Part shown: positions 6,848 to 58,076 of the stretch, in pieces
Layout of the letters: each line of letters opens with the position of its first letter
Numbering within the stretch: position 1 is the stretch's first letter
Assembly (NCBI RefSeq): GCF_006345805.1
Contig: NW_021831287.1
Coordinates: 186,001 to 250,000 of the forward strand
Length of the DNA stretch: 64,000 nt
Direction: 5' to 3'
From: Octopus sinensis
Taxonomy: Eukaryota
Position numbers and translations under genes: made by a program
The notes under the pieces: model-generated
Told to the model about the DNA's origin: nothing
The model's input: the letters and a program-made list of their open reading frames with translations, nothing else
Databases searched by the model: none

Positions 6848-7250
6848 ATGGTTTTTTTGGACTATCAAAAGAAATGCTTTCAAAAATAAGATTTATAAAG
6901 ATTCCGCCTGTTTAGACGAAGGACTGTCAAAGATAGAACGCCTTTTCATCAGAAGTTCCTCGAAGATTTTGCAATTTGACGAAGAAAAAGCTTTTATTTA
7001 TAAAAAAAAGGGAAAATTTTGAGCTTTTTAAAACTGACGAAGCTGAATTAAAGGTGAAAACTATTGAGGTAAACGCATTGATTAGAATTTTAAGGCTGAG
7101 CACAATTCTAACCATTTTGGTATTAAAAAAGGATAAGCTTCTTACTTTATTAGCATCTAAAATATATAGAATAAAACGACCAGAAGTTTGTAAAGTAATC
7201 GGATTCAACCAATCAATAAAGATATGGATATCATCCACCAGCGAATGAAA
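6848..7250 (+). mobile_element. Degenerate Ginger-type integrase N-terminal fragment
   Basis: H..NHFG-I.K...SKIYRIKRPEVCKVI resembles the HHCC region of the integrases at 35.8 and 44.0 kb. A probable 26-nt intron gtaaacg...ttaag is present. Confidence 0.45.
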
Positions 7251-32700: not shown

Positions 32701-32799
32701 CTTTAACTTTGTCTCCGGATTGTTTCAAAAATTTTTGTAATTTTATAAAATAATTAATGTGCAATTTAGTGGGTGTTTTAGTAGCCAAGAACTGCAAAA

Positions 32800-34362
32800 A
32801 CAATGTATTTTAAGGCAAAAAAATTGTTATTGAATATCCGCTGGAGTTTTTATTCCGAGAGAATGGCGAGTTGCAATGTCAACTTTGCTTATGCACAGTC
32901 AGGTGTGAGAAAAGCATTTTGTGAATTCTCACCGAGAATCGAAGAAGCACTCAAATTTATTAAGTTTTTACAAATTAATATATTTTTTTAGAGAATAATT
33001 TCTATCACAGCCTTGTTTGGACGAGTTACCCAATGATGACTGGTCAATGCAAGTCACTAAAGCATTTATTCAATGCGATATACCCTTGCATAAATTGACT
33101 ATGCCTCCTCTAAAGAATTATTCAAGAATACTTCTTTGCCTCTTCCTTCCCCAATACAAAGCAAGAATGTGCGTTAAACAATTGAAAACTGAATATATTG
33201 TATTATTTCAAGAAAGTTTAGGTTCATGAAAATATTAATTTTTTAGAAATCAACTTGTATTCGCCATAAGTGACGAGGTCACTATTCGTAGTCAAAAATT
33301 TGTTGCAGTTTTAATGGGGATACTTAAAAATCCCGATAAAACTTATTTGATTTCTTTCGTAAAATTGATAAAACTTCTACCAAAGAAACAATTATTCAAA
33401 TTGTTGACGATACGATTAAATGCGTTTTAATTGAAAGACAAAATTTCCTTCTCCTAATAACAGATTCCGCTAAATATGCTAGCAGGTTTTAATTTAACAT
33501 ATAATTATAGCTGGAAAAGTTCTTAAGCTTTTATATCCAAGGTTATTTCACGTAACTTGTGCTGCTCATCTGATGCATAATTGTTCAATGAAAATCAGGA
33601 CTATTTATCCTGAAATTGATTCTCTTATTGCATCAATTCAAGCGGCAATAACAAAAAATAACAAGAGAAAACGACTATTTAATGAAATTGGAATTCCCCC
33701 TCATGTAGTTTTAACTAGATGGGGTACTTGGCTAACTGCTGCATTTTATTATGCAAAAAATTTAATACATGTGATAAACATTTCAAAACAATTCCTGATG
33801 ATGGAATCATTGTTCAGGCTGCAAAATAGCCTAAGAGATGAATCTCTAGTAAAAGCTTAAGTTCTATTGTTAGAAATTATTCGACAATTCCAGGTAAACT
33901 AGTTTAATAATAGCAGAATTATTGTGCAAATTTGAAAGTTCTCACCCTCAATAGAGTTAGCTTACAAGAGCTAAAGAATTTAAAATTTGACGACGAATCA
34001 GATATAATTGAAAAATATTTGAATGAACGATTACAAAAAAATGATTTATGTCAAATTATAAGAATGACAAATTCATCAATTTCTCCTGAAGAATATTGTA
34101 TGCTTTTAAAGTGTCAGCCTTCATCCTCTTCCATAGAACGATGCTTCTCTCAAATTAAAAACTTTATGAGGGATAACAGAAATTTTAATATTGAAAATAT
34201 AGAGAATTATGTTATATGTTTGTATAATAAGATTCTTAAGTTAAAATTTGTTAGGTTAAAATTTTTGTTTTATAGGTTAAAATTTGGTTATTTTTAGGTT
34301 AAAAAGTTAAAATTTTTAGGTTAAAAAAATCGAAGTTTTTAGGTTAAAAAAAAATTGCCCTA
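32800..34362 (+). mobile_element. hAT-related (CGGBP1/DUF659-like) transposon with micro-introns, decayed
   Basis: TDSAKY...AG..LK..YP.LFHVTCAAHLMHN, PP..VLTRWGTWL, SSSIERCFS. Introns at 32964-32991, 33222-33246, 33486-33510 and 33894-33916. GCCCTA terminus with TAGGTTAAAA subterminal repeats. Confidence 0.75.
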
Positions 34363-34387
34363 TTTATAATCAACAAAGATAGTTTTA

Positions 34388-35980
34388 TGTCACGAGCCTA
34401 GGTCGTTACCGAGCCTAGGTCGTTACACTTATGGACTTAGAAAAAATTCAAAAAAATAAAAAAAAATTTGAATCAATTTCAAAATCGACTTTGTCAAAAT
34501 AAATATTATAAAATGACAATACTTAAAAATGGATTGGATGCCAATTTTTCGATGATAGAATTTAAAAATAATGCCAACTAGACCGTGCTTTAAAAAACGA
34601 TTCCCGAACTAAAAATAAATTTTAATTATGAATTGCTATTTTTTTCAAATAAGAAAAATTTCAAAATGCTTTAAATTAGAAAAATACGCAGAAATGTATT
34701 TTTATTCGAAAATTTGTCTATTGAATGTTCGGTCATGAATGTTTCTCTGCTAATTAGGTTTTGAATTTTTTTATTAACAAAACAATCAATTATGTTATTT
34801 AAATTTTTTTATTCTTTTCATGAATGTCTTCTTAGTAGTTCCATCATCCATTTGAACTCTGACCATATTATGCGGCAGGATTTCAGTTTTGTACAAACTT
34901 CTCCGTATGGACTTTCCAATTTTTTGAGTGCAGTGAAGGATTGGTACCATAATCCTTTTGAATCCTTATCTACAATTTAAATAATTTGAGTTTACCTTAT
35001 CTCCAATTTTAAATGAATATTTTGACCGATGAACACCCATTCTCCTGTTCATTTTTGGAAATATGGAGATGTCACATCGGTGGCGGAAAGTTGAAAGAAA
35101 ATTCTATGTTTTTCGAATCTATTCTATATATTGCGAATTTTTAACTAACCATCTGAATTGTCACTCTTCATCTCAGTGTCTTTTCAGGAATAAGTTGTTC
35201 GATCCTCTAATCCCACGATATCTATGAAATGGGAATCCTCCTAAAAATGAATAATTTTAAGAAAACCAGTAGAAGAATGTTTACTTAAATTATAAAAATA
35301 AACAGCTTCATCTATATACTTCGTCGTCCAACACTTATCTTCATCATTAGCCATCATTTAGATAGCGACCTTGTAACCGTTTGGTTAAAACGCTCGATGA
35401 TCCCTTGACTTCTGGGATTTTTGGCCTACTGTGTATCTGTTGAATGTTGAAGATTCACACAAGGCAGCACATGTGGATTTTTGAATTCAGTTCCATTATC
35501 CGATTGCAAATATTGACACGGTCCAAAACGTAGAAAAATTTTTTTGAGATTTTCAGCAACGTCAATTCCGCTTTTTATGTTTTAGGTTTCGAGTGAATGC
35601 GAACTTCGAGTAGACGTCAAAACCGTTAAAAGCCATGCTATAGTTTCATTTGTTTGTTTAAATCTTTAATTATATAATACAAAAAATTGATACCTCTTCA
35701 GATCAATAAGTCCATCTGGAATTTTTCATTGGGACGATTGGCAATCACATGATTTTCTTCATCCCCTACTTTCAAGGGAGTTGAAAATTGCAAATTTCAC
35801 AATCGGCAACAATTTTTCGGATTATTTGGTCGTTTTAACAGTGAAATATTTTCATGGCACATGTTCTCAAGAGTGTTATTTCCACAATGCGAAACGAGAT
35901 GAATTTGGCTAGCCACCAATTTCATAGAAAAATAAGCGAAATGTCACGACCTAGGCTCGGTAACGACCTAGGCTCTGACA
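34388..35980 (-). mobile_element. Ginger-type DNA transposon with ~40-bp TIRs and a decayed intron-containing integrase
   Basis: TGTCACGAGCCTAGGTCGTTACCGAGCCTAGGTCGT at 34388 and its inverted copy ending at 35980. Integrase motifs HCG.N.LE, DVYSKF, LQSDNGTEF, HSRP..P.SQG.IERFN. Confidence 0.85.
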
Positions 35981-36116
35981 AGTTATGTACACAATAATAG
36001 CAAATTTTTATACGATTTTTGGGACAACCTCTATTTTTAGAACAGCCACTTGATGTTCCAAACGGAGATTCGACTCTAAATGGGATAACAAAGAAAATTC
36101 TTTTTTTAATATTTAA

Positions 36117-36160
36117 TGTCACAGTCCAGACATGAGCCACGCCGGACATGAGTCACTTTT
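36117..36160. mobile_element. Orphan Ginger-like terminus
   Basis: TGTCACAGTCCAGACATGAGCCACGCCGGACATGAGTCAC has the same TGTCAC start and internal direct-repeat layout as the other Ginger TIRs. Confidence 0.45.
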
Positions 36161-36499
36161 CAAAAATTTATAAAAATAAATAAATAATTATTAAATAGAT
36201 ATACCTTACTCCAACTATACCATATTAGTGTTTTTTATGTCTTTTTTGGATTAAAGTTCATATTATTTACCCCCAAATAACAAACATAACGCATTTTTGA
36301 CCCGACATAACGTTTTATCGGTACTGTTGCATTTCATCCTGCACGAAAATAGCCTCTAAATGAATTAATGCAAATTTTTATGAATACTAGATCGAAAATT
36401 TAAAAAATTGAACTATGCCGAATTTGTAAATTTTATTCTAATTTTTTTGAAAAAAATTTGAATTTTTTACCGGCTTGTGGAGATGAATGATACAGTTGT

Positions 36500-37020
36500 C
36501 ATGCGAAAATTTGCAAAACTGAAGGACTAAGAACTTCCCCGTTCTGAAATGGAGTCAGTTGCTTTTCTTCAAGAGGTTGGAATCTTTCCCAAAGAAAACA
36601 AATGTCAAAAACAGAATTTATGACTCTTCTCCAACAGCAGGAAAAACAACATGGGTGTGCTATAAAATGGGTGTCGAACATATATAGTTCTATTAGAAAC
36701 AGTAAAGAGAACCTTACAGTTAATCACAAGTTGCCATAATTCGTTATAAATTGCAGGACGAAAATTTTGTAGATCGAGCACAGGTGCACATACACAGAAT
36801 GTTGAGAGGTTCAGATAATAATTATATATGAAAAATAAGACTGTTGGGGTGCGCAAAATGACGCAAAAGAGACAAAGTGGGACCCCGCGTCACTTCATGG
36901 GTGATATTTTGCAGGTATCAAACTCCTAATACATTTATAGAATTTTATGGAGAAGGCAAGGAGCCATTTAGAAACTCCTTCGATGAGCTAATAGATGCCT
37001 CGTCAAATGTTTATCGATTA
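36500..37020 (+). mobile_element. Merlin (ISXO2-like) transposase remnant
   Basis: FLQEVG..P....C...W.C....C....SIR N-terminus; TGAHTQNVER; GTPR...EF.WRR after a 26-nt intron (36915-36940). Confidence 0.65.
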
Positions 37021-37419
37021 ACTTGAATTTTTTTATTAGAAACAATTTTAAAATATTAAAAATTATTTTTTTTAATTTCCTTAGCCGACTAAAATTTCCC
37101 CCTCTTCATTTTCTAAATATAATGTGCCTCTGTCCTGTTTTATCACTCTGTATGCATATGTATCTATCTGGTCATACAGAGGATATTTTCTTGTGTTTTC
37201 ATTTATATCTTGATCCATCCGTAAAAGTGCGTAATCTCCAACTGATATTCCCTTTTCATCAAATCTCCATCTTCTCCTTTTTTTCATTTTTTCCCCGCAC
37301 TTTCAAAATTGTTAAGTACGTCTTCTTGCATTTTATTTACTTTTTCGCTTTCTTGATACCCAAAATCTACTTCTTCGTATTCATTTTCTCCTTATCGTAA
37401 AATAATTTCATAATTACCA

Positions 37420-37765
37420 GTTCCTTGTCCCCAAGTTCCCGATGGAAGGGAGAGGAAGAGCCTTTAACCAGACACCGCTGCCTTCACAGCGATCTTCACG
37501 GAGGCAAGCGACACAGTGTTGATTGGAGACATGAAGGAGGCCTTCGAAAATTGCCTGACAAGAGATTTCGTCCCATTGACGCTGGACAGATTAAGAATTG
37601 GGCAGCTTCGAGGCAAACCGAGCCTCCACCGACCACAGGCGGCAGAGTAATTTTCAGACAATTTCCGTTCGGAGAGGTTTCTAAGAACGATGTCTGAGAG
37701 AGTACGAGAAGCATAGTGAGCGGATAGGAATGCAGGGAGGGCAAGATCGGAATAGGGATGCAGTC
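37420..37765 (-). mobile_element. CRE-like non-LTR retrotransposon fragment
   Basis: DLALPAFLS... region homologous to GIRSCRDLSLPCYLSS at 46.2 kb; GC-rich relative to flanks. Confidence 0.55.
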
Positions 37766-38545
37766 AAAGCCATCAGATGATCACGAAGGTTTCTTTTTCC
37801 GTAAACTTTACGTATTTGAGATTTAAGAAGCATCTACAAGAGAAGCACCGTCCTTGCAAAAATTGGAAAAGTGGCAAGTTTTGAAGTCTTTTAACAGAAG
37901 CAAAATTTGTATCACATTTCATATATTCCCATAAACAGCTGTCGGAATGTTTTTATTTGAATATTGTAATATTTCTAAAATCCTATTCGTTTGAAGTTTT
38001 TGGACTATATTCACTAATTTTGCAAGGATCTGAATTGAAACGAATGCGTATTTTTTGATTTCAGCTTTTTTAAGGATTTCAAAAAATTAGAAAGAAAATT
38101 TTAAACATAGAAAGAATTTTTTATTGAAAAATTCTTTTTTTTATTTACAAGGACAGTTTTTGTTTGAAATTGTCTACTTGAGTTTAAAAGGACTTTTCTA
38201 AGTTTATTTGAGAATTTCGCAACAATTAATATTAGCCACAACCACAATAAATTATAATTTGAGAACATTCTTCCCCCTTCAAGAGTATATGACAGTTGTA
38301 CAAGACAGAATGAGACGGAAAGAAAACCTGGTCAACCCCAGGAATGTCTCTAAAATTGAATTCCAGAAATCATCAAACGACTGTTTGCCAAGTTTCGATA
38401 AGATTCTGTTTAATGAGAACAGAAATAAATAACTTTTCCAAATGAATAACTAATTCTCTGATTTATTAGACGAATTCTTTTATTTTTTAATTTTTGGTAT
38501 TTTTTGAGAACCAGTGTTTCTTAATTAATTTATCTTAAATTAACT

Positions 38546-38930
38546 ATGGATGGTTTTGAAGTAATAAAGAACATAAGTCCTGATAATGTTAGGTTTTATT
38601 CTAGAGTTTTGCAGGGACAACTTTACTGTGGTTGCTGCTGATACTAAAGTGGACGCCGAGTTCAGTTTATTAAATATGGCAAGTCCTCTTCTCACAATTA
38701 CTACAGATAATCTGAAAATAATAAATCTGAGTAACTACTTGTTTTTAGCTGAAAATGGCCAGACTGAGGACGTCAGTTACTTTTGTGACCATATCTTAAA
38801 GAATATTTTTTAATGGACACTAATTCTTTTAATATTACTGTCCAGGGACTGAGATGAGTGTTTACTTTACAGTCAACTTTATCAGAAGAAAGATTGCGGA
38901 CACACTTTTCGTATTTGCGTTTATAAAGTA
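38546..38930 (+). pseudogene. Truncated, divergent proteasome beta-4 (PSMB2-like) pseudogene
   Basis: F.VVAAD......LLNM...KI..LS....LAENGQTEDVSYFCDHILKNI...EMSV...VNFIRRKIADTL aligns by eye with the PSMB2 N-half. It has an in-frame stop or frameshift and no C-terminal half. Confidence 0.6.
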
Positions 38931-38999
38931 AAAAAAGAATAATAAACACGTTTTTAGTAACAAAAATTTGTTCAGTCTTATATAAGTTTAAATAAAAAA

Positions 39000-40282
39000 T
39001 AGCACAAATTTTGACGTCTAGTTACCCTAATAATGATAAATTCAGAAATCAATGATGAAAAAATTATTGAAATTGTAGATTTGAAACAGTTTTATTTATG
39101 AGTCAAATATTACCAATAAATTCTTCAATCCGCCATTTTCTCAAAATTTTTCGAATCGGACAAATTCTCGAATCTGCCAGATTTTTGTTAGCGAATCCAC
39201 CATATTTCTCAATTTTAAATAATTTTTTAAATTAATTTTACAGGTAAATAATTAATTTTTTAACACGTTTTCATTGTTTATTGCTGTTTTCATGAAACGT
39301 AACTGTACACGATTAAAAAATAAACAAAAAATTGTCATTTTCAAGTTCATTGAATCGAATATTGAATTACCTTCCATAAAAATTTCTGAAATTTTTCTGA
39401 AATATATAATGTACTTATTTCTGTAGATCTATTGATGATCTGAGAGAGCAAATGTGTTGAATAACTTAAGATCTGAAATTTATCGTAAAGAATATTTAAA
39501 GTTTAGTGAAATTAACAATAATACAAATTTTTGGATTAATTCAATGGATGCTAAAGTAGCCATTTTGATCGATGAAATTATTACTGAGAATTAAACTTTA
39601 AAGATGCAATATTATATATATTGATTCGAAAAATTATATTGGTTCGAAAAATTATTATATGATTCGAAAAGTTATTATATTGGTTCGAAAAATTATTATA
39701 TTGATCCGAAAACCCTATATTCAAACATTATGATGCATGGAACAAGATTGATTGTTTTTTAAAATTCAAATGCTTTACATATGCAAACTGGATTCAAGAC
39801 ATTAAAGTATAAATTATGAAAACCCTGCTGTAATTGAAAAAGACTAATATATTCTAGAAAAATGAACATAAGTGATCCTTTAGAAGAAAGGCTTTATATT
39901 GAAATTGACTACAATGAAAATTAAGAATTTGATTTGAATGATTTTGAGACAATAGAACAAGAAATTGATGGTGAAAAACACCTTGTAGAAAGTCAGAAAG
40001 GAGTAGTTTTCACGTGGCTTTTTAAGCTTTAAATAAATCAAAAAATTCTATAATCAGTAAGAAATAAAAAAAAGTAAAAATTCTTCGATGTCGAAAATCC
40101 CGAATCCATTGAAAAGCTTGGATCATCAATGATCCGAACTCTAAAAAATCAAAAATTACTGATTTTTTTGTTATAAATAATTTTTTGCTTTACATTATCA
40201 ATAGACGAATGAATCAATAAGTCTCTCGAATCCCCCAGATTTTGCCGATCCCCGAAATTGGCAGATTTGAGAGAGCTTACTG
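39000..40282 (+). mobile_element. Highly decayed pogo/Tigger element with an internal ~20-23-bp tandem repeat (39612-39712)
   Basis: Terminus GAGAGAGCTTACTG|TA; repeated TTGGTTCGAAAAATTATTATA units. Confidence 0.5.
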
Positions 40283-40496
40283 TATTTTTAATTTATTGGT
40301 TATTATTGTGATTATATTCGTTGTTAGATCTAAACAAATGAAGGCCAAAATGTGCATTTAGTCACTTCAAACTATAATTTCGACTTGTTCCGTAAATAGT
40401 TGATTCTTATCTCATCTGCCATGTCTGTAATTGATAAATGTCTTATTTTTTTCAAAAAAACTATTTAATAAACGAAAATAATTAAAAGAAAATAGA

Positions 40497-40920
40497 CTAA
40501 AGTAGTTTAGGTCTAAAACTGTTACTGATCGAGAAGACGTTGCCCCTCAGGATCGCAATGGAAATTCTTTGAAACAACCATTGCTTCACCCGAGGCTCTC
40601 GTTGTCTTCTGGCAATCAGTTGTCCGATTTTTCCAACGAGATCCTGGGGTTTGTTGGTCATTGCTCCGGACGTTTCAAAGAAGATCGGATCAGTGGCTAA
40701 CTTTAGAGAAGAATCGAGCGATTGAAGCATGCCAGATTTTATGGAGCAGTTTGATGTTCGCAGCAAATATAGAATTCTTGGAAACATAAGGTTTATTCTG
40801 AGCATGAAAAATCCAAAGTAAGTATCAAGCAGGATGAGTTTATTTGTAAAATCAGTGACCCATTTGGATTTCTCATATAGCCTTCTTGAGTTGGCTTTGG
40901 CCATCTTCTTTTTTATATCT
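40497..40920 (-). mobile_element. CRE-like non-LTR retrotransposon C-terminal fragment
   Basis: PRILYLLRT and PIFFETSG...WLFQRISIAILRGN, the typical CRE-clade C-terminus. Confidence 0.7.
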
Positions 40921-41459
40921 CGTAATGATTTTAACTTATGATATACAAAAAAATAAAGTCAGCAATTAATAGAAATATTATTTATTTAATAAAGAGTTTT
41001 TTAATTATTTTTTCAACAAATAACGAATAACTTTAATGGTTTTAGCGTGTTGTTCTTGTTGTCTTTGTATGTGGCTATCCTTTTTTTGTTGCTTTCGTAT
41101 AAAATATATTTTGTAAATTTTTTTATTGATATTCCTTTGATCTTACAAGTTTTGTAATTTACTGATTTTGAATAGCGATGTGATTTTTTAAATCCTGTTA
41201 TTTTAAATTTATTAATCTTGTATAACTACAAAATTTGTATTTATCGTTTGGAAGTATTGTTTTTACACTTATTGTATTATTTTTATTCACATCGAAGCGA
41301 TTTCTACATTTTTTCAATTTATATTATGTCACGAGCTGGACGCGTTACCGAGCCGGACGCGTTACACTTGTGGACTTAGAAAAAAAAATTTTTTTAATTG
41401 TTTTAATTTATTGTAAAAAAGAAAACAAAGAGAAACGAGAGTTAACAAGAGGACTTCTG

Positions 41460-41620
41460 ATTGAGAAACAGTAAACAGATATTGGTGTACTTTGAAATCT
41501 TTAATTCTTCTGCTCTGCGAGAAGCAGGGCCAGCTGCGACAGCTGAAGGAGGAAGATTTTGTTCGGAAAAGTGTCTGAGCAAGTTGCATCCCATATCAGC
41601 GATTTTCTAAACTCGAATGG
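41460..41620 (-). mobile_element. CRE-like restriction-like endonuclease fragment
   Basis: PF...KSLIWDATCSDT...A..AE motif. Confidence 0.65.
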
Positions 41621-41699
41621 GAAGGTGGATAGAAAAAAATTGAACATAAAATTCAACTTTAATTTCTCAGGTGATTTTGTCAATAAAAAATTAATAAAT

Positions 41700-43385
41700 T
41701 GACAAATACCGAAGACATAGCAAATCTTCTGGTCTTTTCCAACTTTTTCACAAAAATGCTACTTTCTTTGGACCTATACCATCCTTGATAGCCATATATC
41801 AAGAATGGCTCAATACATGTAGAATACACAAAAAGGAAAGTTCGAGTCTTTAATTATGTCTTCGAGTCTAGAGTTCATCTGTGGTCCTAAATTTACTGAT
41901 TTATTTCTTAACCAGGCATTGTGTTCCTGTTTTGTCCTGTTACACAGATACTTGTTGATCGCATTGTAGTATGAAGGACTAATTTCCTCTATCGGATATA
42001 AATAAGTATATCTATCATATATTATATTTCGTTCGAACCAGTCTTTGAAGTGTTCGATTTCATTCCCGATCGGTTTTCCTCGGTACCGGACAATTGATCT
42101 ATCAAAACAATTGAGGGCAGCGTCTCCTTTATTAATTTCGTCTTTCTCGTCAATTGTATGTGTTTGCCGGTAAAGACGAGTCATGTCATCTTGATAAGAA
42201 CTATCCTTCGGATTAAAGACTACAGTCATGTCGCTGTAGTCTGCTTCTTCAAACAAATATTGGACAGCATTTCCATATTGTTTAGACAATATAGAAGTAG
42301 CCCTGCCAATAATGTAGTTGTCCTTTCCCTTGGCAATTTCTTTTCAAAATTTCTCTTTTCTCTTGATCACTCAAGTTGGCATGAAGAACTTTTTTTGAAG
42401 AGCTTGTTTAGCGCGTTGATCGCTTTGATCTGCTCAATGGATTTTTCTTCTATTTGTATTTCGTTTTTATCTTTATTTCTCTCATTTTATCGTCAGATGA
42501 AAATAAAAATCTTATGTATCGTATTTACCTCTTTAAACAAATACCGAATTGAATTGTTTATTTTCTATGTAACAAACTCGTCACTAGATTAAAAGGGGGA
42601 GAGAAGAGCCAAACGAAACCAAGGAGACGGAAGAACCAAGTTTGTCTGCTGATTGGGGTCAACTCTAATGGGACACCAGATGTCCCTTCTATAAAAATAA
42701 CGACCCCTGCACCACTATTTATTTAAGTGATGCAACAGTTTTTCAATGGATCGTACCGATCCCTCCAGCTCTGGGGTTAGTTTGGATTTTAAGTTAAGCC
42801 ATGTGCCAGTTTAATGGCATAATCTCCGCGTTTTCTCCAAACTTCGCAGCTTCCGAACCATCCTTGAGATCCATAGATCAGGAAGGGTTCTATACACGCA
42901 GAGTATACGTATAAACGTTTCCGGTTTCAGCTGGAATCGCATCAGAGCTTTCAACATTTGGGTAGCCTTGTTCTTTATCTTCCTTATATACATCTTGAAT
43001 GAACCAGTTGCATCCACAACTATCCGAGGTATTTAAGATCATCAACAAATACCGAACGAACGAACAGATTTTATTAACTTAGCAACCAAAGAGAAGAGTT
43101 ATATGAAAAGGTTTTATTAAAATCGAGACACCGAAAGCCTCCTCCTTGCTTTCCTTTTCACTTCTCATGCCCTTTGCAATGAGCAGAGGACTTGCCGAAT
43201 GTTTTGAGTTTGTTCGTCTAGCTCTCTGGGGCGATCCTGATCAAGCCGTAGCTTATATGCCAGTTTAATCGCAAAGCGCCTTGTTTTCTCCAGTTTGGTG
43301 ATTATGCGATTTCTCTCGTCTGTAGGGTACCAACCTTCATGTCCATAGATAAGGACTGGTTCTACTATGAAATGGAATATCACCT
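41700..43385 (-). mobile_element. Three non-LTR RT thumb-region fragments, one fused to an unknown ORF (41810-42289)
   Basis: (C/I)(I/V)EP.LIYG..GW......LEKTRR.A occurs at ~41.75, ~42.85 and ~43.3 kb; KYLG..D upstream in the middle copy. Confidence 0.65.
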
Positions 43386-44236
43386 AAACAGTTTGAAAAT
43401 GTGACAATTTAACCTGTAGAAGAATGTTTGGTTAAATTGTAGAAATATACTGCCTCTTTAATATGCTTTGTCCAACATTTTTCTGAAGATTCCGACATCA
43501 TTTTAGATAAGCTTCTCGTAATTGTTTGATTTAACCGTTCAACAATTTCCTGACTCCTGGGGTTATTTGGCCGGCTATGTATTTGCTGAATTTGGAATTT
43601 TTGACAAATCTCCTGTATGTAAGAATTTTTAAACTCTGGTCCGTTTTCAAAAAATAAATCTTAAGTTGTTCCGCAACTTCTTTCCCACTCTATTCCGCAA
43701 ATTCCTGGTGTAGGCATACTTAGAATAAACGTCGATAATTGTGAGTAACCATGAATATAACTCATTACTTTGTTTGAATCTGATAAAAATAAATTTTAAA
43801 ATTTTCTACCTCCTTAGATCTATCAAATCTATCTGATATCTTTCATTTGGAAGATTTGTAACAATATGATTTTGCTCATCGCCAACTTTTAATGGTGTGG
43901 AAAAACGGCACACTTCACAATCTGACACTACTTTCCGAATAATTTCCCTTTTTATTCCGAAGTAACTGCGCATGCAATGGTATTCCAAGCTATTGTGTCC
44001 ACAATGGATCTGCTTCGCGACCAAATCCATCTCTTGAGTGTTGTCTGTGGAAATAACCAGCTTATGATCTCCACACGGTTGTCTCAGTAAAGTCGTCCAT
44101 TAATAAGAATAAATTTTTCCGCCTTCTTTCTCAACCGGTAAATACGATGTCTAGATTTATGAGAACAGGTTTCAGAATCCAAAATTCGACACAAAATGTC
44201 GTATTCTTCGGAATTTTTGATGAATGAACGAGACAT
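43385..44236 (-). mobile_element. Ginger-type integrase remnant with two 30-nt introns
   Basis: HCGHN...C.VC, YQIDLIDLRR|F...WLLTIIDVYSKY, HSRPNNP..Q.IVER. Introns 43780-43809 and 43385-43414. Confidence 0.8.
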
Positions 44237-44324
44237 TAACAAGATAAATATTAACTGCCAAATTTATTCTCTGAAGCAGTTGTTGATGAAATCCACCTTT
44301 TTATTGATTGATTGAATCTTAATG

Positions 44325-45138
44325 TCAAATTACCTTGTATCTACCTTTCAACTTGACCTTGTATCCAAGGGGCACGAGGTCTACCAAATATCTGTTTAGT
44401 GCCGAACTCGAGGCACGTCGCATGCATTTTAGAATTTTTAAATTCTCTACCATTGTCGGTATGCAGAATTGTTGGTGGTTGATATGAATAAAAAATTTTC
44501 CGAAACAATTCAGTAATCTCTTCTCCATTTTTTGTCTTTGCAATATCAACAATTCCAAATTTGGAGAATGAGTCAATGACCACAAGAATCTATTCATTAA
44601 TTTATTGATTCTTACCCAAGAATAACCATCATTTTTTGAAGAATACCGCCTAAGATCTATTAGATCCGCGATATATCTATCGCGCGGATTTTTAGCAATG
44701 ATTGGAGTGACTGTAGGTTTAGTAGCCATTGTTTTTTTGAAAAACAATAGCTACACCGACGAATGATTGCAGAAATTTGGTCTCTAGTGCAATTGTAAAA
44801 AGTTCTTCTTAAAATACTGAATAGTCGGTTTCGTCCAAAATGATATTTGTTATGTTCAGCCTAAAAATAATGATGTAGACACGTTTTTTTATTAAATTTA
44901 TTTAATAAATAAAAATATTAATTATTTATAAAAATTATATAGATTTTTCATTTAATCTTCATAACTTTATGATTTGTATATTTTTCTGACATGTATTAAA
45001 AAAATTAACGCGTCAATTAAAAAAATATAAAAAAAAGATGTTTTTCTTTTTTGATAAATAGTCTATATTTTCAGTTTGGCTTGATTTGGTTAGAGTCGAT
45101 CCACTCCTGTCGCCCAGGCTCACGTACCGACCGTGACA
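44325..45138 (-). mobile_element. Second Ginger-type integrase fragment with 5' terminus
   Basis: ADLIDLRRY...YSW|ILVVIDSFSKF...LHTDNGREF...GRPRAPWIQGQVER; 26-nt intron 44590-44615; terminus TGTCACG on the minus strand at 45138. Confidence 0.8.
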
Positions 45139-45188
45139 TATTATTTTATTTAACCCAGGAATCACCAACAGTCAATTAGAGTAATTAA

Positions 45189-45420
45189 TTAGGTGATTTC
45201 AACAATCCTCAAGATCTTTCTCAGTGTTTCCCGATGTTGGATTCTGGACCCAACGCAAGTGCGGAACGGACGAAGAACAGTTCTCGTAACGAATTGAATC
45301 GGGGTAATGTTCTTCTGATTGCTAATTGACATATAATGGTTTTTTGACAGTTGGTCCTGTTTAATGGTCAAGAAGCCCTTTTCATCTTTCTTGATTAGGA
45401 GGTCAAGCGGACTTGGAAAA
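45189..45420 (-). mobile_element. Possible Penelope-like RT C-terminal fragment
   Basis: LDLLI......T....KNHYM...R..RTC......E.L.KI resembles the PLE thumb region. Confidence 0.4.
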
Positions 45421-45799
45421 ATATTGTTCAAATTGGAAATTTGCATTATGCTATTTTGTATTACACGTACAAGAAAATAGATTTCACTTTTTGTTTTTAT
45501 TTTCTTTCACAAAATTTATCAACGATTTGTATTTTGTGATATATGTGTGGCCAGGTCGCCATGGGCAGGAACTTTAAAAATTAATTAATTGACATTTATT
45601 GTCATTTTTTGGACGAGACTTCAACACCGACATTTATGAGTGAATCGGACGAAATTGTAACTATTTCTTGTCAAAAAATAAAATAATCAATTTTTTCAAA
45701 TCAAGGATTATTTTTAATTTCAAAGGAAGGCCGCATATTCGTTATTCTTATTTATTTTTTTTAAAAGAAGGAATCAAGAAAATGAGAAGTTAACTAAAT

Positions 45800-47530
45800 T
45801 AGATGAGTCGCCGAGCGGATGGACAGGCAATTTCCACGTGACGATATCCGCTGAAAAAGTCAGCTCGTTTCACAACTGTCGTGACTCCTCCTCGAGATGA
45901 TTAAACCAATCTCTGAGAGGAGTTTGAGAGCTTTTTGGCCAATTACCCCACTGGTTTTGAAAGCCAGGGGGACGAAGCAACAAGGCGAATATCTTCAGTT
46001 ATGTGCGAACAATATAATATTATCTCAGTTCCTTTGAGCAGATGGAATGTCCGGGACTTTAAGCCTCCGAGAAATCCACACGTTGACACCAGCCGTATAT
46101 TCCAACAACTCGCACTGTTCAGAAGAGGGAAAAAGAACAGAGTTGACGAAATTAGTGGAAGCGGACAACGAAGATAGGTAACACGGAAGAGATAAATCAC
46201 GGCAAGAGCGAATACCGATGCCCTCATAACGAATGGGCAAATTAACACGCAGCGTATCACCGGATTTGAATTTTATGTTTACCAGTAGCTCAAGGGCTTT
46301 TGAAACCAGATTATCGAGGCGAGATAAGTATTCTTGTTCGAGGGATTTGAATAATCTTATTTATTATCTATGAATTTGAATAATTTTATATTTTTGACAA
46401 TTTTTTGATATGATGTTTTTATAAGGCTAATGATCCATAAAGTTTTTTTTCTAATTTTCTGACCTTTTTTTCCCTACTTTTGTGCAGTGGTTTCATATTT
46501 TGAATATATGTTTACTACACACAATTATTATTAATAGCACTTTTACGGACCAAAGATGTTGTGCTGATCAAGGTCGTTTGTACCAGTCATAAAATTTTTT
46601 TAACATGAGAAAGAGAACAAATAAGTGATAGGAAAATACACATACTGCAACTTCGGCTGCCGGGGCTGATAAGGGATATTTATAAGCTCACACTTGCTGG
46701 CGTTTACTTCCAGTCCAATTTCAAAAAGGGTGGGAATTATGTTGAAAATATTTTCAATCACAGTATCAGCAGTTGCATGATCGAGATACCACAGTTTGAA
46801 AGTAGAATCGTTTGGCGTACGGCAGAGTCAATACTGAGGCTAAAAACTGCTTTACCCTTACGGAAGACGTAACTCGTCGATATACATCGTGCGTACTCTC
46901 CTCTTTTACTTTTACATACAACCTGGGACGTAAATTGTATCACCACGTCGAATCTTCTTGCGCTGTTATTCGCAAAGTAATTTTCATTACTATATTATTT
47001 ACAAGTCAATTTTGCAGCTGAGAACATCATTAGTACGACGGTAGTCTCGATAGTGTCAATTCTATCATTCCTTGGAATTGTATGGTTATCACTACACAAA
47101 AACGCTTTATGTAGGGTAGATCTAAAATTCGGGAGATTAGTTGTTGATTCATCCCAAAAGAATTCGTTGAAAGCACAACTGTGATTTGAGGGAATTTCGT
47201 CTGTATATAAACGTCATGAGCTCGGTCTTCATACTGTCCAAGACCTTCTTTCCAATCAATAAATTGATCAGGAATCGGAAGGCTGTGTATTTCAAGCGAC
47301 TCATATGCGTTTATGAGATACGAGATTCCGCCACTGTTATCCCAATTGAAAGAATAAATGCATGCGAGGATCTCCTTTATAAGTACTTTCACATCCAGTA
47401 AGGATTTTATGAAGTGGAATGGCCGCATATTCGTCGAGGCCGGCAGGTGCTCGCGCTTGAGTAGATCCAAGATCTCAGGTGTCGTAGGCAGTATTGTGCC
47501 GTTGTTGGAAATAGCGCAGAAAACTCCCAT
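45800..47530 (-). mobile_element. Fragmented CRE-like retrotransposon (pre-RT, RT core, post-RT)
   Basis: LLKREH.P...I.SF...SGG (47.4 kb); WYLD...IGLEVNASKCEL (46.7 kb); LPIRY.GIGIRS..DL.LP.YLSS (46.2 kb). The pieces are colinear on the minus strand. Confidence 0.7.
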
Positions 47531-48806
47531 TATTTTTTTAATTTGACATGTTTTATAGTAATTATTTTTTGATAGTTTTATAACTTTTATAATAAAATCG
47601 TGTGTTTTTTTACCAATTTTCTATGAATTATATTTATGAATTTCAAATAAATATGATTGAAAATGGTCTTTGATTAAAAATGTCAAATTTGATATGGAAA
47701 AAAGTGATGAGACTATCAAAAAATATGAATTTTTTTCTGCAATAGATATAAATAATTATCTTCTGGTAGCTTTTTTTGAACTGGTTGATTAGTCTTGATT
47801 TTAATAAAATTGATTAATAAATTCTGATTAGTATCATTAAAATTATCAGGTCGTTAAGAATATAATCAGGCGTATAACACTAGGGAGAAGTATCATAATG
47901 AGATGCTGTTTTTCATCAAAAGGCTTCGGTGAACTATTTGTAATAGATATAATTCGCACAAATATTGCGAAATCCTGAAAAAATGTCTGTTACGTTCGGC
48001 ACTAAATTAAATTTGACACAAAAATGGACATTCAACAATGGAAAAAAACTAATTATTCTAACTAATTCAGAATTGGAACGTCCATTATCTTCTTTTGTTT
48101 TATAATTTTTCTTTTTATTGTAATGCAGATGATTAAACCGCTAAAAGCTAGACATCTCATTCGAAAATCAAAGGCCAGGCTATACAATTAGGAAAAACGT
48201 TATGTCACATTCAGGGAGGAATATAACTAGTGATTACTGTCTTAAAATCGGATTAAAATTGATAAGTCTATTCATAACACGTCCCTATTGTACTAGAAAA
48301 GTTTAAAAATGCCCCTTAGTAATATAACTGGACATGAATAGCTTTGCTTAAGGACTAGACTAGTCCACAACTGGTTTGTGTGGTGAAAGAGAAAATTTTC
48401 GAATATTTTTGATAATTTTACTAATTATAAGTAGAATATAATTAAGAAATGTATTTGGCAAGAACTACGGCATGAGGAAACATACCGCGTAGAAACCAAA
48501 ATTTTTTGTCTCCGTTTTATAACATCATTTAAGAAAACGATACAAAAACGGAACATGTAACAAGAAAAACAATCACGTGAAACATTTATAAATTTTATTT
48601 ATTTAATTAATACAAATTGTAGTAAAAATATATAATAATTAAATGAAAAATATTATTTATCTAGATAATTCTTTTGTTTTCATTTATAAATAAGATTATC
48701 TCATAATCAAAATTACTAAATATAAATTAGATTTATTTAAAAATAATTAAAAATAATAATAAAATATTAATAAAATTAATTTCGTAATAAACATTACATA
48801 ATTTAA

Positions 48807-49995
48807 ATGATAACAGTAAATTCAGTGAGTTTTGGCAACAATGAAAGGTACCCGAAACTAGTCCCCTAATCACTCCCAGTGTACTCTCATTGGGGACAAC
48901 CTTCGGATACAGGACATTCACCTTCAAAAGTCATCGTCCCCTCGTCCAATTCCACTCAGAAACAATTAATGACATTGTTTTATTTGAACAAATTACTTCA
49001 CAAAATTTCGCGCTCTTTGTTGCTCAAAATAATCGGCGCCTTGTGGTATGTTTATCACTCGAGACCCACATGATCCTCAACTCATTTATTTTCCCCACAA
49101 CCGTCCATTCAATTCGCGCCAATTCTACTGTACCTTTTATTTAAATATTTAGATTTTCGCGGTTAAATTTGGAGCAAAAATCGATATTTTTTCAACAAAA
49201 AAAATATGTCAAATCACATCTTTTTCTGTCGATCCTGAATCAGGTGAGGATGCCGTGGCGATTTGTTCTTCTTGGATTGCCTTTTCGGGGACCAAGGGTC
49301 ACCTCACTGTCCTCCAAGTGGGCAAGAATGACCCCCAAGAACTCGTCTGTTTTGAAGAAAGTATTGGAATTGTCAATTTTTCCCACTCCCGTGATTATTT
49401 GGCAGTTTCTACCACCACGGTGATTTCTCCGTGATTGACCCGACAGGGGGTTGTTATCAAAGTTTATGATCCGGCCAAGAATACACTTCTTTTTCAGTTT
49501 GTAAGAGGACTATTCAGGCATGGCGGGAAAATTTAAGTAATAGAAATGTAAAAATGACTTCTTTGACATTTTGCGGAAAATATTTGGTAGCGTCGTCCGA
49601 AACGGAGTCCGTTCATGTTTTTGACTTGTCGGAAGAGAAGAGAGATGAGTCTGTCTGGTGGACATTGGCAAAGACTTCTTTGAGTTTTCTCCCCTTCGAG
49701 ACAGCCAAAATGGTCACATGGACTCGAGCTGTGGCCACAATTCACCTTCCCTGTGAGGCAGGACGGGTTACAAGGACTCGTGCTTTTGAGTTGTTTTTGT
49801 GTGGTTTGTATGTGTAGACATAATGGGGAAATGTTTTTGTATGTTTTTTCTGGATTGGGGTGGTTTTATTGCTTTGTTGTGGATGATTGTTATTCGGTTA
49901 GACAAATTGAGTCACATTTTTTGTTGTATCACATTTTTGATTATTTTTTTTGTAGAAATAAAAAATACTGGGTTAGTGGGGGAGACACCTTGTGA
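48807..49995 (+). CDS. WIPI: PROPPIN / Atg18 family (WIPI1/2-like)
   Basis: VSFGNNES.LSLGT..GYR.F; EQITS...ALF; YLAV....G.VIKVY....LFQFVRG..R....SL.F...YLVASSETESVHVF; RAVATIHLP. Micro-introns include GC-AG 49518-49543. Confidence 0.85.
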
Positions 49996-50199
49996 TTTTT
50001 TTGACCATATTCTCATATCTTTTTGTAAACTTCATAAATTTTTGTATTTGAGTAATAATCTATTTTTTATAAACTCTTTTTATGAAATTAGTTAGTTTAA
50101 GGATGTGCCTGAATATTGTGTATTTTTACTTAAGGTTGAACATTCACTAATAATAGAAATCCGGAATAAAAATATTTTTTAGTAATAAGTTTTATTCAT

Positions 50200-51050
50200 T
50201 ACAAATACCAAATATGTCAGCCAGATAATATACTTTAAGCATGAAAATATCGCTATTAAATAAATTGGCAAATTCGGTCGACCTAATATTTCGTAAAAAT
50301 AAACTAATATCATTTCACAGCTCGGAAACCCGTGATAGTTCTTTACTTCTTTATAACCAGCGTACTTCAGTATCAAATAAAACCACTAGTAAAGCAAATA
50401 TGTTTTAAATTCTTTGCAGAGTATTTAAAAAGTCTAATTTGTAGCCTTACCTTGAATTAAATTCACAATTTTGACTGTTGAATCAAATACAATTTTTTAG
50501 CTTAAATGGGAAAGTTTTGTAGCAACTGAATATTTTCAAATGATGCAGTGTTTCATAATTACATGTGGTGCTATTTCTTTCACCAATCTGACAAAACTAA
50601 AACGCTATTTTATCATAGCTGGTGACCAATCTCTACAAATATATTCAACTTTATCCCAGTGAATACAATTGTTACGTAAAAAGCCAAAAAAATCAAGAAT
50701 ATCATTAGCCGTTGATCTCGCAGTTAATTCCAAACAAAATAAAGTCGTCATGAATTAATTCTCTGTCGACAAAACGAACAAATGCAACAAAATCATTTTT
50801 AAATGTTATATCAATAGATTTATCCAATTTTATACTAATTATTCATGTGCTGCCATTTATTTTCATAAAAAGTTGTTCCAAAAAATTACAAAACATGTCT
50901 CGTTTTCGATTCGTAATCATATTATTAGATAAAAGTACATTTTTACATTTTTGTAAAACATTTTAATACGGTAGGTTTATTAAATTTTTTCTGGAAGAGT
51001 GAGATACTTTGTTTTTGGCAATAATTAAGGATATCTAAAATGGTTATCTA
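50200..51050 (-). mobile_element. Decayed hAT (Buster/ZBED-like) transposase
   Basis: LSNN.I..R, C.D.SPAM, HVIMKHCII motifs with stops. Confidence 0.65.
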
Positions 51051-51710
51051 TTGGTCCAAATCAAAAATTACTAAGTTTCCAAATTTATATTTAGTTTTCT
51101 GCAATAAAACTTTTGGCAGTGTCAAAATTTGTGTGAGTTTTTTTATTATATCTAAGCAACCAAAAGTTGAGCTAAAAAATCAATAATTGACCTCCACAAA
51201 GTCAACAAAATTGATCCAAAAAGAGAGGAAAATTGACCAGAATGTAGGCCTAAAAAGAAGTTCTCGAAATGACAAAAAATTCTATCTTCGTTAAAAAGTT
51301 TTAGAATTTCATTCGAGTTCAATCTCTTTGATATATTCATTTATTTTACTTTTATCATCGTTTTCATCGAGTTTTTACAAAAAATTCAAAGGTTTTTGGA
51401 TTTAAAAGTTCCTCGATTCTAAAAACATCAACGATTGGGGAATATCTCAACATTTGCACATCAAATCGTATCATCCACAATCTGACAAATTTATGTTGAT
51501 ATTTGAATTCTGAAGATAACTTGAATCCGATAATATTGAAAAAAATGATTAAGGCAGGATTCCTTAGTTTATCTAAATATATTTAAAGTCTCTAGAAGTA
51601 ATTTTGATAAATTAATTTATAATTAAGTCAATTTAAATTTTATTTATTAAAATTGTTTATTATTTTATTTACAATAAAATATTATCTTTGTTCTAGTGGT
51701 GATTCCAAAA

Positions 51711-52358
51711 ATGAGAAAAGAAAGAGCGACATGTTACATCTGCAAGACCACTGGTTACAAAGAAAAGATGTTGGCATGTAAAGACTGTCGCCATTGCTGT
51801 TTTGTCACAATCTAACCCATCAGACCACTCCCAATGTCTCAATTACTCCCCAGAACTAACTCAAAATGCAAAATCCTCTCCATGGCAATGTTTTAGCTGT
51901 AAAACATGTGTCATTTGTCTTGATGTTACCTATGAAGAGGATCTATTAGTTTGTGATCGATGTGACTTGGGGTACCACACAACCTGTCACGTGCCTCCCC
52001 TGGATGGGCCACCAAATGGTCCTTGGGTGTGCCAAAGGTGCTGTCAGGGAGACTCAGACTGTTCAGAATGGTCAGTTCAGGAGGTAATAAACCCGTCTAA
52101 CCTACAGGTAGCAGATTGGATAAAGAAAAATGGATTTCCAGGTGAGGCAGAGCAGTTTATTCACAATGTTTGTAAATATGGCTAGATTTGTAGGAGATTG
52201 ATGGAATGGCTTTGATCTTTCTGAAGAGATCGGATGTTTTAAAAGGAATGGGACTCTTGTTAGGGCCAGCCTTGTTGATTTATGAGTGTATTGAGGCACT
52301 ACAAAGAAGGCGTTTTCTTACTGATAGTCTTAGAAAAACTATTACCGATTCGGCTTGA
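51711..52358 (+). CDS. Double-PHD finger plus SAM-domain protein (SAMD1/SAMD13-like SAM), 4 exons
   Basis: C..C...C..C...|H..CL...WQC..CK.C..C...LL.CDRCD.GYH..C..PP....P.G.W.C..C; SAM WSVQE|VADWI...GF..EA..F..N|EIDG.AL..L.R.DVL....LGPAL.IY. Confidence 0.85.
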
Positions 52359-53099
52359 ATGATTTTTTTAATTTTTTTGGATTTAAGTTTTATTTTAAAG
52401 ATCGTAAAAGTATTTGATTAAAGCTTGTATTTTAATTACTTTTTACTTTATAAACAACTAAGATAAGATTCGAACCTACGATATTATGGTTTGTAATAAC
52501 AACGTACAGTAAATTATTTCAAATTTGACATTTTTGGTTTTGTCAAATTTTCGGCAAATTTTGGATTTAATCAATACTTTAAAAAATTTTAGAAACTTTT
52601 CGTTGATAAAAACTACCAGATTATTGAATTTTAATGAAATAATATTCAATTTTCATTTTTTGATAGTTTGGATTTTTTCTTTAAATCTATTAATTGCTTT
52701 AATAAAGACAATATCCTCTTCGTTTTCAATATTTTCATGAAGATACTTATCAATTTTTATTAAGTTAAATGCTATTTTATTCTTGTTTAAAATTTTCATT
52801 TCAGTAGCTTCTTCATGGATGAGTATCTCACTTTCATAATGGTGTTATTTCTTTATTATCTATCGCATTTTTTCAGAATAATTTATTCACATAAATTCTT
52901 GAATTTCAATCGGAATGTAAATATCCGTCTTGTATAATGTTACTTTGACAATCCTCAGATTTACTAACGGTGTGGTTGTATCCGATGTTTATATAATTCA
53001 GATACCTACATGTGTCAATACAATATCCGCCGTAGACCTCCCTCTTCTGAACCCACTTTGTCCCACAGACAAAAATTTGTCCACGGTAGGAGATATTGT

Positions 53100-54010
53100 A
53101 TAAAGGACAATTAACCACAGTAGTTTTCGTAGAGATGTTAAGAGAATTATAGGTCAGAAATTTTCTCAACCACATACTGGGAGTAGACCTATCCAGGGCG
53201 TTTGACTCTGTTCGCAAGGGAAAATTTATACAGCTATTGGAAACATTGTTAGATGAGGACAGCTTGAGAATGATACGTGTCCTAGTTGCGAATACTGATC
53301 TGGAAGTGTGGGTTGGCTCGGAGCACTCTTGTAAATTCAAAACACACATTGGCATTCCACAAGGTGATCTCCTCTCCGATCCTATTTTTCATCTATCTGG
53401 AAGCTGCTCTTCGTGATCTGAGAGCTAAAATTGGCCCAAACACCATCATGGAATTAATATATGCGGACGACATAGATTTTGTTTCAGAAGAGATGAATGA
53501 TATCAAAATTCCACTTGAATACGCTCCTGAAGTATTTGGAGAGTGGTTCTTGAGAATGAATGAACAAAAGACTGAGTTCATTACAGTCACACGAGAAAGT
53601 AAATTTTCCTGAAAGATATGGAGGAGATCAAGAAAAGTCGGGTCACTGCTTGGTGACTGGGAAGATGTCCAACGAAAAAAGATATTGTCAACATTAGCAT
53701 TGAAGAGGCTCAAATCGACATGGCTAAGTTACGCGCATCTCTCAAATCCCGTAAAAGTACGTTTGTAAAATGCTTTCATCCTGCCCATTTTACTATAAAT
53801 CACAGGAACATGGGGACTGAATCAGAAATGTATAGAAAGTCTCAATGCTTTTCACAAAAAACAACTCAGGTCATTACTGAAAATACACTATCCAATAAAG
53901 ATCAAGAACCAAGACTTATACTCAGCTTTCAAAACAGAACAATTAGATGCAACTATCACTAAAAGCCGATGGGGACTCTTTGGCCACATACCTCAGTTCC
54001 TGCTAATGAC
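53100..54010 (+). mobile_element. Non-LTR retrotransposon RT remnant
   Basis: DLSRAFDSV, G.PQGD.LSP.LF.IYL, YADD, N..KTE motifs with frameshifts. Confidence 0.8.
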
Positions 54011-54342
54011 ATCATGGAAACATACTTTCAATGATAATAAATATTAATGCATCGTTCAATAATGCGCTTAAAAATTTAAAAACATTAGAAAATACCTTTT
54101 GCTTTTATTGAATCCATACAATCAACAAGTTTTTCACCAAGTTGAAGTAATTTAACTTTTTAATTGTTTTTGTAGATGAATTTTTAGTTCCGAATTGTTC
54201 TAGAATTGACTCACAACTCTTTAAAATAACGTTAACTGTATAATATACAATTTATACAAAAAAAATATATCGGCAATTTTTTTGGGATAATAATCTTATA
54301 ATTCAATATTTGCACTTTTTGTTGGATAGTGAGTCTGTATAT

Positions 54343-55579
54343 CAGTGGTTCCCAACCTGGGGTCCGCGGAGCCAGTTTTGGGGTTCCGCGAAATTTATTA
54401 TATTTATTTAATAATAGTTTTTAATTATTAAAATATATTAAACATCCACGCTTATATCTTGTTTCTCTTTTGAGTTAGTTGGTCAATTTTATAAAATTTT
54501 TAATGAGAAACAATAATTGCATAAGAGATTCCAAAAAATATTCAAAAAAGGTTTTTTTATAATTATAATTTCAGAAAAGAAAATGTGATGAAAGCTACCT
54601 CTCATATGGGTTTTCTCAGAATGGATCTGATTTACCACATACGGCAGAATGTGTAATATGTCATCATATAATGCCTAACACATCTCTTGTTCCTGCCAAA
54701 CTATCAAGACATTTATTGATGAAGCATTCTCATTTAAAGGATAAAGATATTTCCTTTTTTCAAAACAAATTAAATGCATCTACAAGGTGCAAGTTGGAAA
54801 CGTCCAATTTTGCGAAAGACGACAATTTAAAATCTTATGAAGTATATAATTATTTTAATCAAACAGGTGAGTTATCTTGTAGCACGTTGTGGAGAGGCAC
54901 ATACAATTGCCGAAAATCTTATAAAGCCATGTTAAAAAAAATCATCGAGTGTATTTATGGCGAACAAATGTCTAAGAAACTGGATCTTGTTCCTTTGTCA
55001 AATAATACTATTTCAAGGCGAATTCAGGAACTTTCGGAAAATATTGAAACACAGTTACTAATTCGTTTGAATAATTCGAATGGTTTCGCTATTTAAATTG
55101 ATGAATCAAAGTTAAAGTAATACCAGCAAATCTAACATCAATTGAATATGAACATCTTATTGATTTGACATCAGAATCAGCGTCACATCAGTTCAATAAA
55201 AATGAATCCCTTTTTAATTTTTGGAGGGGATACATTTCAAAATATCCAGATATCTCAGAAAAGGCTATACGTAAACTATTACCTTTTCCAACGACTTACT
55301 TATGTGAGTCTGGGTTTTCAATATATACATCCACCAAAACAAAATATAGAAATAAACTTAATGCTTCCGCTGATATGAGGATACAGTTGTCAACAATAAC
55401 TCCTAACGTTACACAACTATGCTATGATAAAAAATTAGCTCAATGTTCACATTAAAATTGTTTTTTGTTATTACTATTGTGTTTTAAGTGAAATTATAAT
55501 AATTGAATTGAAAGGGGTTCTGCAAAAAATAAATTAGCTCAAAAGGGTTCCGCGAGCACCTTAAGGTTGGGAACCACTG
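54343..55579 (+). mobile_element. Internally deleted hAT Buster/Charlie-like element with micro-introns
   Basis: TIRs CAGTGGTTCCCAACCT / AGGTTGGGAACCACTG; perfect 8-bp TSD CTGTATAT; BED finger, LSNNTISRRI and FPTTYLCESGFS. Introns 54551-54574 and 54842-54866. Confidence 0.92.
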
Positions 55580-58020: not shown

Positions 58021-58051
<31 letters not shown>

Positions 58052-58076
58052 GTGTGCACACCAACTTCAAATTGGC

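Follow-up and report, generated by a model that had tools for sequence, protein, structure and literature searches.

The question raised by this locus is how the transposase genes of several groups of DNA transposons came to carry introns of only 19 to 35 nt. The DNA analysed (the window) is a stretch of 64,000 nt, positions 186,001 to 250,000 of contig NW_021831287.1 in the Octopus sinensis assembly GCF_006345805.1, and it contains transposons of the hAT-19/CGGBP-like, Ginger, Merlin and Buster types whose coding regions are broken by short GT..AG segments. These inserts are probably host-type introns that were gained singly by resident DNA transposons and are carried mostly as neutral passengers. 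The origin of spliceosomal introns is still an open question, and one reason is that the intronless state from which a gene started is known in few cases. Transposases whose sampled relatives are free of these introns supply that state: a minimum of 24 sites in four groups, and one more in Tigger relatives, can be ordered on trees, and intronless families and retroelements serve as built-in controls within one genome. The value of the system is limited because most of the introns are too old to reveal their origin and because splicing is inferred from sequence.

A preliminary description of the window listed 11 such segments and proposed that their removal restores transposase frames. All 11 are found in the sequence, and ten have exact GT..AG ends where they were placed; the Ginger segment given as 43385-43414 exists, with coordinates off by one (GT..AG at 43384-43413, minus strand). 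The four Ginger segments among the 11 are on the minus strand. The window copies are decayed or contain homopolymer errors (the hAT copy has 13 frameshifts relative to an intact copy), and intact copies were therefore used for testing. Further copies were gathered from the same assembly, and introns were called with a spliced protein-to-DNA aligner written for this analysis. Frame restoration is seen in the intact hAT copy L022, which after removal of four segments (27, 24, 25 and 24 nt) aligns to residues 1-454 of a homolog from outside the assembly, and neither a stop nor a frameshift interrupts these 454 residues; of the 14 reference proteins, 13 or all 14 call each segment. Since the aligner forces splice ends, a control version without the splice rule was run. 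In 33 of 44 tests, each of one site with one reference, it demanded an insert of exactly that length; for Buster the same length was recovered in 0 of 2 tests, the inserts chosen being 16 and 22 nt, in the frame class of 25. With shuffled inserts GT..AG fell within 3 nt in a mean of 3.0% of cases. The segments are thus insertions by both frame restoration and the control, and do not align as coding sequence; such an alignment is what the preliminary description had named as contrary to its proposal. At the required insertion the ends are GT..AG (or GC..AG), the U2-type pattern. Five more segments had been overlooked, two in Ginger A (one a candidate), one in Ginger C and two in Merlin. All are likely to be ordinary spliceosomal introns.

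In the sampled families 91 introns were mapped, 63 in Ginger, 22 in hAT, 5 in Merlin and 1 in Buster. Their median length is 26 nt (range 19-35) and they are 78% AT. They represent 24 independent sites in these four groups, and one further site occurs in Tigger relatives. The count leaves out hAT and Merlin calls with fewer than 9 votes, Ginger calls with fewer than 7, and redundant copies, as well as locus L053, which had picked up a neighbouring element.

The host gene in the window has introns of similar size. Its PLC-gamma gene contains 12 introns (each supported by a minimum of 4 of the 8 references), all of 22-27 nt with a median of 23.5. The assembly is 2.7 Gb, yet the window is gene-dense. 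Near relatives of the window elements are confined to small unplaced contigs, and a Buster query finds matches of at most 47% identity on the large chromosomes. Two database matches carry octopus-protein labels from their source. Dicyemids inhabit cephalopod kidneys. Together the micro-introns, the confinement to small contigs, the octopus-labelled matches and the dicyemid habitat make it likely that the window comes from a dicyemid co-assembled with its octopus host. According to the available text of one report, introns of this kind are reported among animals for myxobolids and Dicyema only (PMC13644364), and a median of 27 bp is given for Dicyema sp. (PMC6543705); 12 of 12 PLC-gamma introns fall below 30 nt, as most dicyemid introns do, which fits myxobolids too. 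The assembly likely contains a second animal genome with micro-introns.

In the hAT-19/CGGBP-like group the introns follow the tree (40 rows, a subset of an 85-row set). The multi-intron families form one clade (support 92/93) in which sites 138 and 219 are common throughout and site 60 occurs in the families with coverage. Site 348 is restricted to (C,(A,B)) (100/100), families D and E being continuous there, and site 323 is shown in family E only. Both copies of family F are interrupted at site 323 and were not counted. A second clade has an intron in family J only (site 142, a clean 31-nt insert relative to an intronless sister group), and a third clade is intronless; locus L214 was rejected as an intronless twin of family J, its deletion spanning the site. 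A test of a single clade for all hAT families of the assembly gave a p-AU of 0.079. The outside comparison covered 36 loci, all on metagenome contigs; the four sites of the window element are all spanned by 22 of them, and 0 of these 22 have an intron at any. For hAT, longer introns at the same positions in relatives, which had been suggested as the mark of mere shrinkage, are not seen among these loci. The four-intron family is young, with 25 of 28 loci at 99.4% identity or more, and its gene is for this reason very likely spliced and expressed. It has short terminal repeats, and an 8-bp target duplication is found at 19 of the 28 loci. Its label rests on motifs and ends: L022 aligns across the invariant columns that represent the BED-like C2H2 finger and the DDE, CxxH and RW motifs, and a Pfam search gave no match for three hAT exon pieces.

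For Ginger, a FastTree phylogeny includes 42 rows from the assembly, of which 39 have one or more intron calls and 3 are intronless. Sites 76, 116, 158 and 239 belong to the C clade (21 rows, support 99), with site 356 in a subclade; the A/B clade (11 rows, support 93) has sites 147 and 281, and its sister (4 rows, support 99) has sites 122 and 167. The sister relation has a support of 98, and the two lineages have no site in common. A further pair has sites 47 and 137, and locus L318 has one in-frame 24-nt insert at site 286, giving five intron-bearing lineages with non-overlapping site sets. It had been noticed at the outset that Ginger A and B share two intron positions and that C differs, and this is right. 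A segment like the candidate C-terminal intron of Ginger A is called in the sister copy L263 by 4 of 14 references. In the tree the intronless Ginger-like loci L168-L170 fall with outside proteins, of which two carry a microsporidian label, a lead for horizontal transfer among parasites.

By their ends, target duplication and domains, these Ginger elements look like Ginger2/Tdd. The integrase core is matched by PF00665 (E 6.3e-11) and an H2C2 finger is present in the translations. Loci L267 and L167 measure 1.6 kb and 2.0 kb between TGT..ACA ends, which leaves no space for a reverse transcriptase. A 5-bp target duplication is found at L267, L167 and window 41327-45138; the flanks of Ginger A and L318 have no matching duplication, and a scan for terminal ends found none in 9 of 12 loci. 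The nearest named matches of the proteins are microsporidian proteins. TDD-4 is said to contain introns. The available text on Ginger1 and Ginger2/Tdd describes an integrase-like transposase with an H2C2 finger and TGT..ACA ends, a 5-bp target duplication in TDD-4/5 (4 bp in animal Ginger2) and 0-4 introns in Ginger1 genes, as seen in Hydra, and gives no intron numbers for Ginger2 (PMC2836005). The present elements differ from those described there in their five lineages with disjoint sets of micro-introns.

Merlin introns are found in the family of the window copy. In its fuller copies 9 or more of the 12 references call five introns, and inspection reveals a sixth; chromosomal Merlins and two other Merlin families on small contigs are single frames. 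The element aligns to PF12762-positive frames, and loci L141, L142 and L147 have GG..CC ends and duplicated flanks; an IS1016/IS1595-type transposase, GG termini and an 8-9-bp duplication are the hallmarks of the group. At the second Buster intron (54842-54866) three chromosomal Buster-like copies are continuous. Support is weaker for the first, which lies upstream of the alignable region and whose removal puts an ATG in frame in 6 of 9 copies. Buster matches are named ZBED5-like or BED-type (49-57% identity), and the flanks contain an 8-bp duplication with a central TA, which is typical of Buster. Tigger B had been described as intronless and is so, together with a third relative, and two other Tigger relatives share an N-terminal intron. 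In 13 LINE-like loci (3,747 aligned residues), which serve as a control and have open frames of up to 990 residues, there are only two calls, both of 18 nt and in decayed copies.

Little of the origin can be read from the introns themselves. At shared sites, over 327 pairs between families, the interiors are 56% identical compared with 55% after shuffling, and the exon flanks 67%. The interiors are saturated and therefore most gains are old rather than current and the mechanism of gain is unreadable; the oldest sites may have been gained in ancestors of the host, before its introns shrank. The exon side shows some signal. A G precedes the intron (position -1) at 17 of 24 transposon sites; in the host the figure is 5 of 12 (Fisher p 0.15). 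For AG the counts are 11 of 24 and 1 of 12 (Fisher p 0.03). G/AG exon ends are tied to new introns in the available text of a review that also mentions conflicting results (PMC3488318). Of 11 intronless relatives, 10 have the G at -1 at site 219, and at five further sites 0-3 have it. No exact intron-less copy occurs among the 28 loci of hAT A or the 10 of Buster, the observed deletions taking exon as well. Within the Ginger C intron at 44318-44344, 10 nt of the exon that directly precedes it are repeated, likely by local duplication inside an old intron. The single family-specific introns of L208 (hAT) and L318 (Ginger) have identical first eight bases, which may be chance.

The mechanism favoured here would operate one intron at a time in transposon lineages resident in a micro-intron host. 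The spliceosome of such a host would need little beyond GT..AG over about 25 nt, and it could rescue some small insertions rich in AT, produced as repair filler or by local duplication, which without splicing would disrupt the gene. A rescued insert would be fixed in a master copy and inherited as the family splits, its interior drifting to saturation and its ends being kept since the transposase is still needed. Introns would be retained because the elements move as DNA. The gains would be mostly neutral passengers and no licence for expression. A bolder version is rather doubtful. In it, random insertions of 20-35 nt would become introns directly and at a high rate through a minimal spliceosome; residents would accumulate introns with time in the host, and spliced lineages would persist and radiate for longer than intronless newcomers. 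If it is true, the youngest single introns would represent intron birth without an introner.

Repeated gain of host-sized introns, as first proposed from the window, is what the mapping on transposase trees supports, with clade-specific sites in both hAT and Ginger. Several points weigh against the gain of introns by residents as set out above. Support for splicing comes from genomic sequence, and the conservation of ends is partly built in by an aligner that forces GT/GC..AG, although the control offsets this. Sampling started from intron-bearing queries. The transposon introns are slightly longer than the 12 host introns (p 0.003, with rows that are not independent). Comparison with their own flanks gives no excess of duplication (similarity 12.0, shuffled 11.8), and 4 of 91 introns reach p <0.03, near the 3 expected. 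The outside hAT loci are distant, come from undefined eukaryotes and are partly redundant, the true donors being unsampled. Two hAT clades of the assembly with no or almost no introns are themselves deep, and neither has a near relative outside it. If these clades are residents, they show that living in the host need not lead to gain, and a recent arrival of intronless families, an idea first put forward for Tigger B, is unproven. In a PLC-gamma tree with no dicyemid row the host gene has a long branch and unsupported neighbours, and the identity of the host is an inferred one. Three outside loci (L174, L184 and L191) contain clean introns of 71, 318 and 346 nt at two other sites, and the hAT group therefore gains introns in other hosts too.

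These long introns speak for an alternative, in which ordinary long introns were acquired in another setting or at an earlier time and have since done no more than shorten along with the host genome. The saturated interiors agree with it, since shared sites must be old, as do the introns of Ginger1 in Hydra (0-4, PMC2836005) and, in the available text on CACTA transposases, the dominance of loss (PMC4158355). The alternative is nevertheless unlikely as a complete account: the 22 spanning outside loci lack the sites, no site is common to the sister Ginger clades, and sites 348, 323 and 142 are nested within clades. Disjoint sister sets and later nested sites favour repeated gain over shrinkage alone. 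The micro-introns also offer a natural test of whether introns protect mobile DNA from silencing. Selection for introns that license expression or shield from surveillance of intronless RNA would suit the large intron-bearing radiations (21 and 11 Ginger tree rows), the presence of Piwi-domain genes on four small contigs including the window's own, and the silencing of intronless elements by HUSH that is reported from human cells. A search for TASOR-like PF12509 found no match in this assembly nor in the controls and is uninformative. The ages of the copies oppose the strict form of the idea. Tigger B, which has no introns, is represented by 14 loci with an identity of 99.3-100%, 11 of them with both ends and at separate sites, and its age matches that of the four-intron hAT copies. 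A hAT family without introns is multi-copy and recent too (95.4-98.6% identity). Since intronless families also spread recently in the same genome, introns are not required for spread. One intron would suffice for a licence, yet there are up to six per family, and clade sizes are biased by the queries. Licensing is thus quite improbable, and a softer benefit of introns to transposon spread is possible.

Spread of the inserts by an introner-like mobile element is very improbable. Introners have reportedly been described from diverse eukaryotes and the exon ends here are AG-enriched, but in a test across superfamilies only (1,901 pairs) the best similarity score was 26 compared with a mean shuffled maximum of 27; age may have erased a signal. 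It is also highly unlikely that regulated retention of one intron acts as a germline/soma switch, as splicing does in the P element. Among the 91 introns 27 are multiples of three, and nine of these have no in-frame stop, so that retention would yield protein; the sites differ by clade, however, and no intron sequence is conserved at shared sites. It is extremely unlikely, in spite of the abundant frameshifts of the window copies, that the segments arose from faulty assembly or alignment, or that they are insertions which stay unspliced in dead copies. They are common to families with recent independent insertions, as the 8-bp duplications indicate, they occur at identical codon and phase across families with unrelated interiors, and no such segments are found in LINE-like elements.

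Introners are reportedly transposons turned introns and resemble one another. Both cases involve many new introns within one lineage, but here the introns lie inside transposons and have no shared sequence across superfamilies. The ultra-short introns of dicyemids and myxobolids, as far as the available texts describe them, are similar in their GT-AG ends, median of about 26-27 nt and weak signals, and lie in compact, repeat-rich genomes (PMC13644364, PMC6543705, PMC6736024). Those reports concern host genes (words beginning with 'transpos' occur 0 times in the available dicyemid text and once in the myxozoan), whereas the present introns are in transposase genes at sites missing from sampled relatives. 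The bivalve Tc1-like elements TLEWI are described in the accessible text as normally intronless transposases that gained spliceosomal introns, but they are low-copy, domesticated-looking and without terminal repeats (bioRxiv 10.1101/656579), unlike the families here, which keep their ends and inserted recently. Intron positions have been traced on a transposase tree across families for CACTA, where in the text available loss prevailed with one clear gain (PMC4158355); here gain at many sites in five groups is simpler. Published hAT-19/CGGBP-like elements share the BED-like finger, hAT catalytic motifs and 8-bp target duplication, and in the portion of that report available introns are a sign of domestication (PMC8097297), whereas the intron-rich family here is mobile. 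Introns in DNA transposons (Ginger1, TLEWI, CACTA) and dicyemid micro-introns are thus already published. No publication was found on introns in dicyemid transposons, or on repeated micro-intron gain across transposon groups in one such genome, in a search with thin coverage of subscription journals and Repbase reports and without supplements. To pipelines with a minimum intron length, elements with micro-introns resemble dead pseudogenes, and active families in micro-intron genomes would therefore be missed.

Table. Transposon, intron and host features of the window (positions from the first nucleotide of the window; sites are those used in the text)
Feature	Position	Strand	Remarks
hAT-19/CGGBP-like transposase gene, decayed copy	32785..34362	+	98.6% identical to intact L022
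hAT right terminal repeat	34352-34362	+	
hAT intron 1	32964..32991	+	28 nt, phase 1, site 60
hAT intron 2	33222..33246	+	25 nt, phase 2, site 138
hAT intron 3	33486..33510	+	25 nt, phase 1, site 219
hAT intron 4	33894..33916	+	phase 1, site 348; 23 nt here, 24 nt and in frame in intact copies
Ginger element A, decayed integrase-like transposase	34388..35980	-	TGT..ACA terminal repeats
Ginger A intron	35664..35693	-	30 nt, phase 2, site 147
Ginger A intron	35241..35266	-	26 nt, phase 1, site 281; overlooked at first
Ginger A candidate C-terminal intron	34970..34995	-	26 nt, weakly supported (one reference)
Merlin element, internally deleted	36320..37010	+	right end approximate; family with at least 6 micro-introns
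Merlin intron	36730..36756	+	27 nt here, 30 nt in fuller copies; overlooked at first
Merlin intron	36809..36839	+	31 nt; overlooked at first
Merlin intron	36915..36940	+	26 nt, phase 1
Ginger element C	41327..45138	-	TGT..ACA ends, 5-bp target duplication; nested insertions inside, including Ginger B
Ginger B intron	43384..43413	-	30 nt, phase 1, site 281
Ginger B intron	43780..43809	-	30 nt, phase 2, site 147
Ginger C intron	44318..44344	-	27 nt, phase 2, site 239; overlooked at first
Ginger C intron	44590..44615	-	26 nt, phase 0, site 158
Buster-type hAT, internally deleted	54343..55579	+	terminal repeats, 8-bp target duplication
Buster intron 1 (putative)	54551..54574	+	24 nt; removal puts ATG in frame; outside homology range
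Buster intron 2	54842..54866	+	25 nt, phase 0; 4/4 references, 9/10 copies
Tigger B, intronless (comparison case)	59278..61018	-	young multi-copy family
Ginger C-clade fragment	6924..7203	+	26-nt intron at 7069-7094 (site 76)
Host PLC-gamma gene, aligned part	9165..12037	-	22-27-nt introns; host standard

Several other features lie among these elements. A different high-copy repeat (window 43045-43365, many copies at 92-99%) breaks Ginger B just past its second intron, and a tandem array of units of about 95 bp (58017-59167) adjoins Tigger B. A further decayed hAT-like element with a weak DUF659 match occupies 31000-32140, and a Pif1 helicase fragment, likely of Helitron origin, is found at 61630-62250. 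On the window's own contig a Piwi-domain match is located at 66767-67039, with others on three further small contigs. The window also contains a tRNA-Cys gene at 28252-28325.

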